From the sequence record OL362041.1: a stretch of 64,000 nt of DNA; one strand, written 5' to 3'. How positions within the stretch are numbered: position 1 is the stretch's first letter; each line of letters begins with the position of its first letter. The DNA is from Escherichia phage vB_Eco_OMNI12. Below, one piece after another: positions 34,241 through 43,204 of this stretch. The position numbers and the translations under genes are program-made. The notes under the pieces were generated by a model that was not told where the DNA came from, ran no database searches, and worked only from the letters and a program-made list of their open reading frames with translations.

Positions 34241-35419
34241 TTAAAAGTATTTTTTAAAACTCATCATAACTTTATCATCAACATCATTATCAATCTGTGC
34301 AACAAGATAAGATGACAGTTCTACTTCTTGTGGCGCTGATTGAACATTATCAGAATTAAGATATTCACGAATCCAAGGATATGGATGTTTAACCGGAGCA
34401 TCGGTAATTGGGCATGGAAGACCACACTGTTTCATACGAGATACAGTTAAGTAATCAATAAAGCTCCACATGCTATTTGTATTTAATCCAGGAACATCGC
34501 CATCTTTAAATAAATGAACTGCCCAATCTTTTTCTTGGCGGTTAACTTCCATGAAAATATCAACTGCTTCTTGCTCGCACTCTTGAGCAATTTTAACCCA
34601 TTCATCGCCATCAGTACCAGATTGAAGTTGACGAATAATATATTGTGTACCTTTAAGATGAAGCTGCTCATCACGTGCAATGAACTTCATAATCTTGGCA
34701 TTACCTTCCATGATTTCCATGTTTTTATGGAAGTTAAAGGTACACGCAAAGGATACATAAAAACGAATAGCTTCTAATGCATTGATTACATGCAAACAGA
34801 GGTAAAGAGATTTCATTAGCTCACGCTTCCAATATGTCTCATGCTCAATAGCATCTTCAATAACGTCTTCGTCTGCATTAATTTCTTTTTGGTATTCGAT
34901 ATCAGCTTTAGCGTTTTCCCAATAACGAGTTTTAATCAGAACATCATCATAATAACGTCCAATGGATTCAGCACGTTTCATAATAGCTTCATCTAATACA
35001 ATCTCATCAAATACCTTTGACGGATCAGTATAAAGATTTCGCATGATATGAGTGTATGAACGACTGTGAATAGTTTCACTAAAAGTCCATGTAGCAACCC
35101 ATGTATCAAGGCTTGGGTCTGAAATTAACGACATAAGTACAGCAGATGGTGCACGACCCTGAATGCTATCCAAAAGTGATTGATACTTCAAGTTGTTAGT
35201 AAAAATATTTTGCTGATACTGAGGAAGCTTATTAAACTGTGCAGCATCCATCATTAAGTTTACTTCTTCCGGGCGCCAGAAAAATGATAAGGACTTTTCT
35301 GTAAGTTCTTCAAATACTCGATGCCGTTGAATATCATAACGCGCAATACCAAGACCTGAACCAAAAAACATAGGTTCTTTTAAAACATCAACTGGATTTG
35401 TATTAAAAACTGTGCTCAT
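34241..35419 (-). CDS. nrdB: Ribonucleotide reductase small subunit, uninterrupted
   Basis: 392 aa continuous ORF with ferritin-like di-iron core. Confidence 0.9.
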   Translation of the reverse strand: MSTVFNTNPVDVLKEPMFFGSGLGIARYDIQRHRVFEELTEKSLSFFWRPEEVNLMMDAAQFNKLPQYQQNIFTNNLKYQSLLDSIQGRAPSAVLMSLISDPSLDTWVATWTFSETIHSRSYTHIMRNLYTDPSKVFDEIVLDEAIMKRAESIGRYYDDVLIKTRYWENAKADIEYQKEINADEDVIEDAIEHETYWKRELMKSLYLCLHVINALEAIRFYVSFACTFNFHKNMEIMEGNAKIMKFIARDEQLHLKGTQYIIRQLQSGTDGDEWVKIAQECEQEAVDIFMEVNRQEKDWAVHLFKDGDVPGLNTNSMWSFIDYLTVSRMKQCGLPCPITDAPVKHPYPWIREYLNSDNVQSAPQEVELSSYLVAQIDNDVDDKVMMSFKKYF

Positions 35420-35470
35420 AAATTTTCCGCTTAGTTAATAGTTGGTGACTCGTCCGTGAGTCAAATTATA

Positions 35471-38269: not shown

Positions 38270-39126
38270 ATTGCCATTTTCCCTTTAATTGCTGGATGCG
38301 ATTCATAATTTTCAAGGATAAAATCTTTCGGTTTCATGTATTCAGTTAACCAGTAAAGCTGTGTTTCGGTGTCACAATTTCCAAACTCTATAGGCCAATC
38401 AATTTTAAGTTCACATAGTTCTTTAGGCTCACGACGTAAAATTTCTTTACATTGCTCAGTATGATTCATATAGATGTGAGTATTACCACCAGAAAATATC
38501 AAATCTCCTGGGATAAGATTACACATCTTAGCCACAATATGCGTCAAGGCAGCGTACGAGGCAATGTTGAATGGCAATCCCAAGAAAACATCTACACTTC
38601 TTTGGTACCATTGTAAATCAAGATAACCATTACGCACATTAAACTGATAGAACATATGACAGGGCGGTAATGCCATTTGATTGATTTCAGCTGGATTCCA
38701 TGCTGAAACGATTTGACGTCGATCAGTTGGTAATTTTTTAATACGATCAATAGTTTCAACTAATTGATCCACACCGCCGAAATCACGCCATTGTTTACCG
38801 TATATAGGACCAAGTTCACCACTATGATATCCTAGGTCTTTAGCCTGGTTTTCATAGTTATCGTCCCAAATAGTTTTACCTTGAATAAGACTACCATGTG
38901 TGCGAAGACGTAAATCATTAACATTGGTAGAACCGGAAATAAACCATAGAAGCTCAGCAATGCATGCATTCCATGCAAGCTTCTTAGTTGTTACCGCAGG
39001 AAAACCTTTAGTTAAATCCCAACGTAATTTAGTACCGAACAAAGCAATTGTTCCTGTGCCTGTTCGGTCATCGGTTTCATAGCCATTTTCAAAAATGTCT
39101 TTAATTAAATCTTGGTATTGTTTCAT
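38266..39126 (-). CDS. td: Thymidylate synthase, uninterrupted
   Basis: 286 aa continuous ORF including active-site PPCHMFYQF. Confidence 0.95.
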
Positions 39127-39171
39127 TTAGTACCTTATATAAATTATAATACATTTTATGAAGCTAAATAA

Positions 39172-39519
39172 TCAATACGGTTTAGCATCAAATTTTCTCT
39201 CAATTTCAGGCGTGAAATATAATTCTTTACCGCGTTTGGAAAAGCGACCAATAATATGATAATTATTCTCATCAAACGTGATATTACCAATATCCATAGC
39301 TTTCAACCAAATATCGATATTTCTATCCAGCTTTATGTCAAAATTCCAATACGGAGAACTATTACCGAAAATACTGCAAGCGGATTCAGTGAAACAACTG
39401 CTATAAATCTTGTCTTTAGGAACTACTAATTGATAGACACCTTTAATAAACTGAGGACCCTGCCACTTTGGCTGTTTCGTGTCTTTTTCTAATAGAATAG
39501 GGTAATAATTAAAATTCAT
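39172..39519 (-). CDS. Hypothetical protein (115 aa) between frd and td
   Basis: ORF with no recognisable motif; occupies a junction that is contiguous in T4 as I recall it. Confidence 0.5.
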   Translation of the reverse strand: MNFNYYPILLEKDTKQPKWQGPQFIKGVYQLVVPKDKIYSSCFTESACSIFGNSSPYWNFDIKLDRNIDIWLKAMDIGNITFDENNYHIIGRFSKRGKELYFTPEIERKFDAKPY

Positions 39520-39538
39520 ATTTCCGCCACGCGTTATT

Positions 39539-40365
<827 letters not shown>

Positions 40366-41166: not shown

Positions 41167-41397
41167 TTATTGTTCAATCAATCCCATGTAAAATTCTGCG
41201 TCTTCAGAATCCATACCATCACAATATTCATTAGCCATAAAGCGGGTGAGGTCTTCAAGAGGACCTTCAATGACAATAGAAAAATTGCAATAATTGGGAT
41301 CATCGTGAATACTTGTGATACTAAGTTCAGGATAACGATTACGAATAATTTCTTCGATATATTCAAAATCAACGATGTCAATATCAACTTTAGCCAT
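41167..41397 (-). CDS. Hypothetical acidic protein (76 aa from internal ATG)
   Basis: AGAGGAAAATAAT-ATG downstream of the early promoter at 41441-41469. Confidence 0.5.
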
Positions 41398-41440
41398 ATT
41401 ATTTTCCTCTTTAATCATCAGCAGTATTGCCGATAGTTGT

Positions 41441-41469
41441 ATAGTACCATGGAAGGACAAGGATGTAAA
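41441..41469 (-). promoter_or_regulatory. Early promoter (TTTACA-N17-TACTAT) with A/T-rich upstream element
   Basis: The ~40 bp upstream segment is identical to that at 58318-58360. Confidence 0.6.
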
Positions 41470-41542: not shown

Positions 41543-42451
41543 TTAAAGGTCATTCAAAAGGTCATCTAGATCCGTGTCATCAGCACTAGATGAACTGCCA
41601 GAGCTTGAGCTCATAAAATCATCTTCAGTTTTTGTTTTGAAGTCATCAACATTGAATGCATCCAAATCATCAGCAACTTTATCAGCTTTCTTAGCGGCAG
41701 TTGCAGCGGCACCACCCATTGCAGCAGTTCCCATAACTTGACTGAACTTAGTGCTCAGTTCTTCAAATGATTTGAATTTATCTTTAGAAGTCATTTCAGA
41801 AAGGTCAACCATTTGTTCGAACAGTTCTTTCTGGAAAGATTCATCGTCAATGTTTGGAATCGCAGATTGATTCAGGAATTTAGATTCGTCGTAGTTACTA
41901 AAACCAGAAACTTGTTTAACTTTCAGTACAAAGTTAGCACCTTCCCACGGACAAGTTACATCAACCGGAGTTTCACCCATTTCAACATCAACCGCAATCA
42001 TTGCATTGATTTTATCCCAGATTTTCTTACCGAAACGATATTTAAATACTTTACCTTCGTTTTCTGGAGCAGCTGGGTCTTTTACAACAAGAATGTTAGC
42101 CCAGTAAGAAGTTTTACGTTTAACAAGACTGTACTCTTTATTGTCAGTGTTGTACAAATCATTTTTACTGATATACTGACATACTGGACAAGAATCGTAA
42201 TCACCGTGGGTAGATGAACATGTTTCAATATACCATTTACCATTTTTCTTGAAACCGTGATTTACAAGAATTGCGAATGGTGCTTGTTCATCATTTTTAG
42301 ACGGAAGAAAACGAATTACTGCTTGACCGTTACCCGCATTATCGAGTTTCAGTTTCCACTCGCCTTTATCTTCAGAAGAAAAACCACCTTTATTTCCAGC
42401 CAGTTTAGCCATTTGTGCAGCGAGTTCAGCAGTAGATTTACGTTTAAACAT
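41543..42451 (-). CDS. gp32: Single-stranded DNA-binding protein gp32
   Basis: 302 aa; zinc-binding H...C...C...C region and acidic Ser/Asp-rich C-terminal tail. Confidence 0.95.
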
Positions 42452-42550
42452 TTTTATTTCCTTTTTAATTTAATTAACAGTTGGTGCTATGACGATGTAT
42501 GACCTCATAGCTGGTCAGTGAGATAATTATAATCTATTTATAATAAGCAA

Positions 42551-43204
42551 TTAATACTTGCAAGATTTCACAGTTTCAATGAAAACATTTTTAGCTTTCT
42601 GTGAATCAATATTTAAAATTTTTCTATAAGCCTTTAACTTTATAGAATAATTATTCCAGACTAAATTATCAGTCTGTTCATCATGTTTATCAATTATATT
42701 TAAAAACGAATCAAGCAAGATAAACGTCTCAAACGAAATTATGTTCGATTGCAGAAGTTTAAAAATATAACTTGACTGAACCTTTGGATTATATTCAAAG
42801 ATTTCTTTAAAAGCAGAAACTTCAACTTTTTTACTAAAATAATAAATGTTGCGAATATCTTCTTCAAACTTAAATTTAATTTGCTTTAAGCGTCCGATAT
42901 ATTCACGATAAAACACAAGTGCATCAGCGTCAGAGATGTCACCAATCCAAGCATCTTGGTTAGCAACCAAATTACTTATAAAAATTAAAGCAAGTTCCTT
43001 TAATTTATATTTTTCTGATAACTTCTGGAAAAAATACTTATCCCTTCGCCTTTGATAAGCGGCATCAGACACCCGCATGCACCAATTATACTTAATAACA
43101 TCATACTTTCCATTCATATGTTGTTTTATCATTAAGTATAATTTATAAACTGATTTACCATCAATGTATCTTTCACCACCAGCAGGCATGCGGAGTTTAA
43201 TCAT
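42551..43204 (-). CDS. gp59: Helicase loader gp59
   Basis: 217 aa, position between 32 and 33. Confidence 0.85.
   Translation of the reverse strand: MIKLRMPAGGERYIDGKSVYKLYLMIKQHMNGKYDVIKYNWCMRVSDAAYQRRRDKYFFQKLSEKYKLKELALIFISNLVANQDAWIGDISDADALVFYREYIGRLKQIKFKFEEDIRNIYYFSKKVEVSAFKEIFEYNPKVQSSYIFKLLQSNIISFETFILLDSFLNIIDKHDEQTDNLVWNNYSIKLKAYRKILNIDSQKAKNVFIETVKSCKY

Follow-up and report, generated by a model that had tools for sequence, protein, structure and literature searches.

In the present study, the open reading frame between frd and td of Escherichia phage vB_Eco_OMNI12 (OL362041.1) was recognised, by its sequence and position, as td.1, a gene that is already annotated in hundreds of genomes. 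In the window, which is the whole stretch of 64,000 nucleotides that was analysed, td.1 very probably represents an old, small gene that belongs to the frd-td nucleotide-precursor cluster, was inherited vertically and was not inserted here. The original prediction had regarded it as an extra gene and possibly the cargo of a past mobile element. This interpretation is T4-centric and was largely not supported: the gene occupies the same position in T2, T6, the RB phages and outgroup genera, and no endonuclease lies nearby. In itself the finding is ordinary, the gene being already known.

The gene and its neighbourhood

The predicted frame of 348 bp and 115 aa between frd and td was confirmed in the ORF listing with its coordinates exact. 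The features of the interval in the window are as follows:

39172..39519, minus strand: td.1 coding sequence, ATG start, 115 codons and a TGA stop (ORF listing)
39539..40120, minus strand: frd (dihydrofolate reductase), upstream neighbour of td.1, 193 aa
38266..39126, minus strand: td (thymidylate synthase), downstream neighbour of td.1, intronless, a continuous 286-aa frame
39520..39538, minus strand: frd-td.1 spacer of 19 bp, AATAACGCGTGGCGGAAAT (sequence read directly)
39127..39171, minus strand: td.1-td spacer of 45 bp, AT-rich, with promoter-like elements (consensus scans)
39537..39544, minus strand: upstream copy of the direct repeat AAATGAAA, the end of frd including its TGA stop (window/T4 alignment)
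39121..39128, minus strand: downstream copy of the same repeat, the start of td, 416 bp from the upstream copy (window/T4 alignment)

The genes within 3 kb of td.1 are the usual small ones, namely nrdA.1 (DUF4326), nrdA.2 (DUF5496), frd.1 (DUF5417), frd.2, frd.3 and an ORF of phrog_3183. This last ORF (40120..40365, minus strand, 81 aa, no Pfam match) occupies the space between frd and frd.1, with an overlap into the start of frd. Its slot is filled in T2, G4498, G28 and fFiEco06 and empty in T4, and the site is another locus with T4 in a reduced state. The frd.3 homologue (41167..41460, minus strand) was listed from a TTG start with 97 aa; since the Pfam family Phage_FRD3 covers residues 22-97, the true start is probably an internal ATG (MAKVDI...). 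A sub-threshold RelB-like match of the same protein (E 0.0018) is probably due to chance.

A 901-bp query over the region matched 536 phage records, 355 of them covered at 80% or more, and the top matches, at 99.9% identity, were vB_EcoM_G4498 and Shigella phage JK23. By tblastn, the td.1 protein was found in 588 phage records. The identity was at least 90% in 362 of these, all Tequatrovirus-type coliphages or Shigella/Yersinia phages, and several Tequatrovirus records, e.g. DalCa and UFV-AREG1, encode a 100% identical protein. The T6 copy (ABI48938.1, GenBank AY262134.2), given the name td.1 in its record and labelled "hypothetical protein", is 99.1% identical to the window protein, the gene is named RB32ORF229c in RB14, and a 348-bp ORF (EcT2_00240) sits in the slot in T2. 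The gene was located at the frd-td position in T2, T6, RB3, RB14, RB18 and about two thirds of the Tequatrovirus records. The window ORF belongs to the T-even td.1/RB32ORF229c orthologue group on both counts, as a near-identical protein of about 115 aa and as a gene at the frd-td position on the same strand. Against PHROGs v4 it gave a full-length match to phrog_1928 (E 1e-35, td.1 residues 4-111 against profile positions 2-125/126). Full-text literature searches returned nothing relevant on td.1, RB32ORF229c or phrog_1928. The paper citing the T6 record does not discuss td.1, and the gene is mentioned neither in the reviews that cover the mobile elements of T4 and genomes related to T4 nor in the accessory-gene screen paper.

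Alleles of the frd-td junction

In T4 (NC_000866), frd spans 145109..145690 and td ends at 145112; the two meet in an ATGA overlap with no ORF between them, as the original prediction had it. Presence of the gene at this position in T4 and most relatives would have counted against that prediction; it holds for the relatives and not for T4. With the T4 junction query, the frd-td span in Tequatrovirus was 301 bp (contiguous), about 717 bp (td.1) or about 507 bp. The 507-bp class carries an unrelated 68-aa ORF (phrog_9550, here called C), whose start lies over the frd stop and whose stop lies over the td start, and which was found at 90% identity or more in 135 records. The contiguous T4 junction was detected in only 32 records with a 60-bp probe for the junction, used under settings strict enough to keep split matches out. 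About half of them are T4 stocks, and the others include RB55, RB59, vB_EcoM_112, G28, F1, FN, HY03, SG1 and a few more. The sum of the three classes (362 + 135 + 32 = 529) matches the 514-536 records holding the locus and is thus consistent with three mutually exclusive alleles, of which the T4 state makes up about 6%. The neighbourhood had been expected to be variable, and the junction is indeed polymorphic, with three alleles in Tequatrovirus. The term "accessory gene" was also a fair one, as T4-type phages live without td.1.

ORF C was seen in fFiEco06 (L012:1654-1860) and at L009:3148-3354 and L014:4670-4879. It has relatives at 40-44% in Phapecoctavirus-like phages such as phAPEC8, and its family is labelled as of unknown function in PHROGs.

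Outgroup synteny and history of the interval

Orthologues of td.1 with 29-46% identity lie directly after frd in seven further phages, usually overlapping the frd stop:

Enterobacter phage ZX14 (Kanagawavirus)
Pectobacterium PM2 (Mosugukvirus)
Klebsiella/Raoultella phage K65
Salmonella S16 (Gelderlandvirus)
Klebsiella P545 (Marfavirus)
Citrobacter CF1 (Moonvirus)
Kosakonia Kc304 (Winklervirus)

In six of the seven, this gene (A) is followed by a second ORF of about 115 aa (B), which is its paralogue (hhalign probability 99.4%, E 4e-21). The B copies lie at L005:2817-3176, L006:2808-3155, L008:2809-3159, L009:2790-3143, L010:2787-3134 and L011:2814-3188, and B is absent from the window. The order in P545 is frd-A-B-C-td, with a C 79% identical to that of Tequatrovirus, and the same five-gene order was found on a 32-kb metagenomic T4-like contig whose A shares 63% identity with the window protein. 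Among the Tequatrovirus copies of td.1, the more divergent ones of NHEP36 and F2 (92-93% aa identity) have an ATG that overlaps the frd stop (ATGA) and lie only about 15 bp from td, a compact layout that they share with the outgroups. Over eight outgroups, td.1 identity showed no significant correlation with frd/td identity.

The ancestral interval would accordingly have been a cassette frd-A-B-C-td, in which A is td.1, B its tandem paralogue and C the unrelated 68-aa gene. Differential loss would have left A only (the window, T2, T6 and most RB phages), C only, or nothing (T4 and few relatives). With the direction of change taken from the outgroups, an old cassette with differential loss appears to be the most economical history. 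The T4 state probably arose by deletion between short direct repeats, AAATGAAA in the window, made by overlapping stop/start contexts. The span is 717 bp in the window versus 301 bp in T4, and the difference of 416 bp is bounded by the repeat at 39544..39537 and 39128..39121. When the window sequence is joined across both copies, with deletion of the sequence between them, the exact T4 junction is obtained. In the divergent copies and the outgroups, td.1 stands in a tightly packed same-strand string with frd and td, with ATGA-type overlaps. Because of this packing, td.1 would, in the early or middle phase of infection, share a transcript with frd and td and be coupled to them in translation.

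Consensus scans of the minus strand found a MotA-box-like TTAGCTTCA (39167..39159) in the td.1-td spacer, followed after 12 nt by TAATTT (39146..39141), and a sigma-70-like TTGATT-18-TATTAT (39175..39146). A block of about 30 bp with the promoter-like elements is missing from the td.1-td spacers of NHEP36 and F2. These elements may provide a putative extra promoter for td; the count of promoter-like sites in the region was not above shuffle expectation. The frd stop and the 19-bp spacer hold a mini-frame ATG AAA TAA (39536..39544, minus strand), which repeats the first two codons of td (ATG AAA) and resembles a second td start, left behind by duplication at the upstream border of the td.1 segment. 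NHEP36 and F2 lack this spacer: there the ATG of td.1 and the TGA of frd overlap.

Mobile elements and homing endonucleases

Single-sequence, profile and HMMER searches, the last over 1.84 billion representative proteins, returned 3, 28 and 51 homologues of td.1, respectively. The 51 HMMER relatives are stand-alone proteins of about 95-148 aa, except four long ones. These four matches were rejected as spurious; the two that were checked belong to the SprB and CarboxypepD_reg types of repeat protein. Since all relatives stand alone, td.1 is not a domain shed by a larger nuclease.

The td gene of the window is intronless and without I-TevI, and a group I intron is present in T4, T6, KarlGJung and fFiEco06; the presence of td.1 and that of the td intron do not track each other. 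The nrdB gene (34241..35419) begins 51 bp after nrdA, with no mobE, nrdB intron or I-TevIII in 34241..35470. Gene 59 (42551..43204) comes directly after gene 32 (41543..42451), and the interval 42452..42550 contains no segG.

It was considered whether td.1 could be a recent insertion into a T4-like contiguous junction, either as cargo of a mobile element, for instance a free-standing homing endonuclease cassette, or as what such an element left behind. Three alleles occur at the junction, the window segment has 8-bp direct repeat borders, spacers of its own and a promoter-like element, and the T4 td-nrd region contains I-TevI, mobE and I-TevIII. Such borders, spacers and promoter-like elements are often seen in free-standing endonuclease cassettes. 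However, at least seven other genera have an orthologue in the same slot, with 29-46% identity and a tight overlap with frd, and compact overlapped copies also occur within Tequatrovirus, in NHEP36 and F2. No endonuclease gene or motif is found in or near the segment, and the window is without I-TevI, mobE, the nrdB intron and segG. In addition, the HMMER relatives are all small stand-alone proteins and never a domain of a larger nuclease, and the direct repeat AAATGAAA is explained by the shared TAAATGAA stop/start context. An insertion origin is thus quite improbable. No homing endonuclease gene was found within several kb of td.1, and the stretch from nrdB to gene 59 is free of them, as in T2. 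The sporadic, non-syntenic spread expected of homing endonucleases was not seen; td.1 relatives stand at this position behind frd in at least eight lineages of T4-like phages.

In the BASEL phages KarlGJung (bas37_0070, L002:3273-3620), FriedrichMiescher and AndreasVesalius, the gene is labelled "putative homing endonuclease". That td.1 is itself such an enzyme we consider hardly credible. The only points in its favour are this deposited annotation and the absence of the gene from T4, and the label has no sequence or fold support and could spread by annotation transfer. Scans of Pfam, NCBIfam and PADLOC gave no match to the protein, even when the thresholds were relaxed; the Pfam scan of the 71 family members gave no consistent match (scattered single matches with E above 0.003), and sequence and profile searches of the PDB gave nothing below E 0.07. 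There was no match to GIY-YIG, HNH, LAGLIDADG, PD-(D/E)xK or any other nuclease in Pfam, NCBIfam or PDB, with either the protein or the 71 family members, and no recognisable catalytic domain or motif of the GIY-YIG, HNH, LAGLIDADG, His-Cys box, PD-(D/E)xK or EDxHD classes in td.1. The absence of a catalytic or homing-endonuclease motif, as first noted from the letters, was therefore borne out by the Pfam and NCBIfam scans, also over the 71 family members. Moreover, there was no nuclease fold among the fold-search results, the conserved W, Y and G-R-F-x-K-x-G do not make a metal-binding catalytic motif, and the deep synteny and very low dN/dS are unlike those of selfish endonuclease genes. A degenerate endonuclease remnant was rejected along with the active enzyme.

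Selection on the reading frame

Pairwise Nei-Gojobori comparison of the Tequatrovirus td.1 copies gave dN/dS of 0.03-0.06 at dS of 0.1-0.9. For the window gene and the 63%-identical metagenomic copy, dN was 0.27 and dS was saturated. Judged from these substitution patterns, td.1 is under strong purifying selection. The original prediction had left room for a frame with no coding signature, and this was not what the substitution rates indicated. An unexpressed chance frame in AT-rich intergenic DNA is practically negligible as an explanation: besides the low dN/dS at dS up to 0.9, motifs are kept across genera in homologues at 26-66% identity, and the family alignment gave an AlphaFold2 model with a pLDDT of 93. 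This reading was rejected, the conservation pattern already refuting it.

Predicted structure and possible function

The pLDDT of the AlphaFold2 model of td.1 was 79 with a 29-sequence alignment and reached 93.3, with a pTM of 0.86, with 71 sequences. The model shows a small domain that is rich in beta structure and has a single helix. It has strands at 6-12 and 27-34 and short strands near 48-50 and 62-64, followed in the C-terminal part by the helix (68-77), a strand at 80-82 and a hairpin (86-96 and 99-104). The residues W19, G91, K95 and G97 are invariant in the family and L9, Q16, G27, Y29, F93 and F102 nearly so; the hairpin carries the conserved motif G91-R-F-x-K95-x-G97, and the median pI of the family is 8.6. 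The weak fold-search matches of the model were mostly OB folds (Teb1, HIN, S1, SSB/PriB and the MCM N-terminal domain), and Foldseek against BFVD retrieved only uncharacterised proteins of T4-like phages, Aeromonas phages included. The resemblance of the predicted model to OB folds is weak, and serves as a lead and not as a classification.

The td.1 protein would thus be mildly basic and fold as a compact beta-barrel with a single helix and a weak OB-like character. We tentatively suggest, from the predicted model, that it may be a non-enzymatic binder of nucleic acid, nucleotide or a protein partner, expressed with frd and td. It would be dispensable in the laboratory, since T4 lacks the gene.

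A host-directed accessory factor, e.g. an inhibitor of bacterial defence or of a host enzyme, which has no functional tie to frd and td and keeps its position for historical reasons, is a possible, rather doubtful alternative. The gene is small, phage-restricted and dispensable, shows presence/absence polymorphism and tandem paralogues, as is typical of arms-race genes, and has no enzyme signature. Very strong purifying selection and a fixed cross-genus position are, however, less typical of fast-evolving counter-defence genes. The PADLOC library, which returned no match, holds defence and not anti-defence proteins, and no literature link to such a role was found. We regard it as unlikely that the machinery for dNTP synthesis of T4-type phages has a so far overlooked subunit or adaptor in the phrog_1928 proteins, through which Frd or Td might be tethered to nucleic acid or the replisome. 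If this were true, T4, the phage in which the complex was defined, would happen to have deleted them.

Implications and comparison with known systems

These results call for caution in the use of T4 as a reference, as at frd-td it is the derived minority (32 of about 529 records, half of them T4 itself). An ORF that is "extra" with respect to T4 is what T2, T6 and the RB phages normally carry. The td.1 family is a strongly conserved, small, phage-borne orphan with a confident predicted structure and no solved relative. The steady place of td.1 inside the frd-td operon makes it a reasonable, low-priority knockout target.

Among known systems, the nearest structural likeness of td.1 is to the OB-fold nucleic-acid-binding domains (Teb1, HIN, S1, SSB, PriB and the MCM N-terminal OB), a weak likeness that concerns the predicted model only. 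With the seg/mob free-standing homing endonuclease cassettes of T-even phages, it shares presence or absence between conserved genes of close relatives and, in the window, short flanking spacers and a promoter-like site. It is unlike these cassettes in having no nuclease domain, deep cross-genus synteny, strong purifying selection and compact overlapped versions. The layout of the window, which lacks the td intron, I-TevI, mobE, the nrdB intron and segG, resembles that of T2. The family phrog_1928 includes both the A-type (td.1) and the B-type (second ORF) proteins of other T4-like genera. The B-type members carry an insert of about 20 residues (ALVI..PTI..YKRNP) after the invariant Trp, and the td.1 subgroup is without it. 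The closest counterparts are T6 td.1, RB32ORF229c of RB14/RB32 and T2 EcT2_00240, all recorded as hypothetical proteins, which agree with the window gene in the length of 115 aa, position and strand and show no material difference from it.
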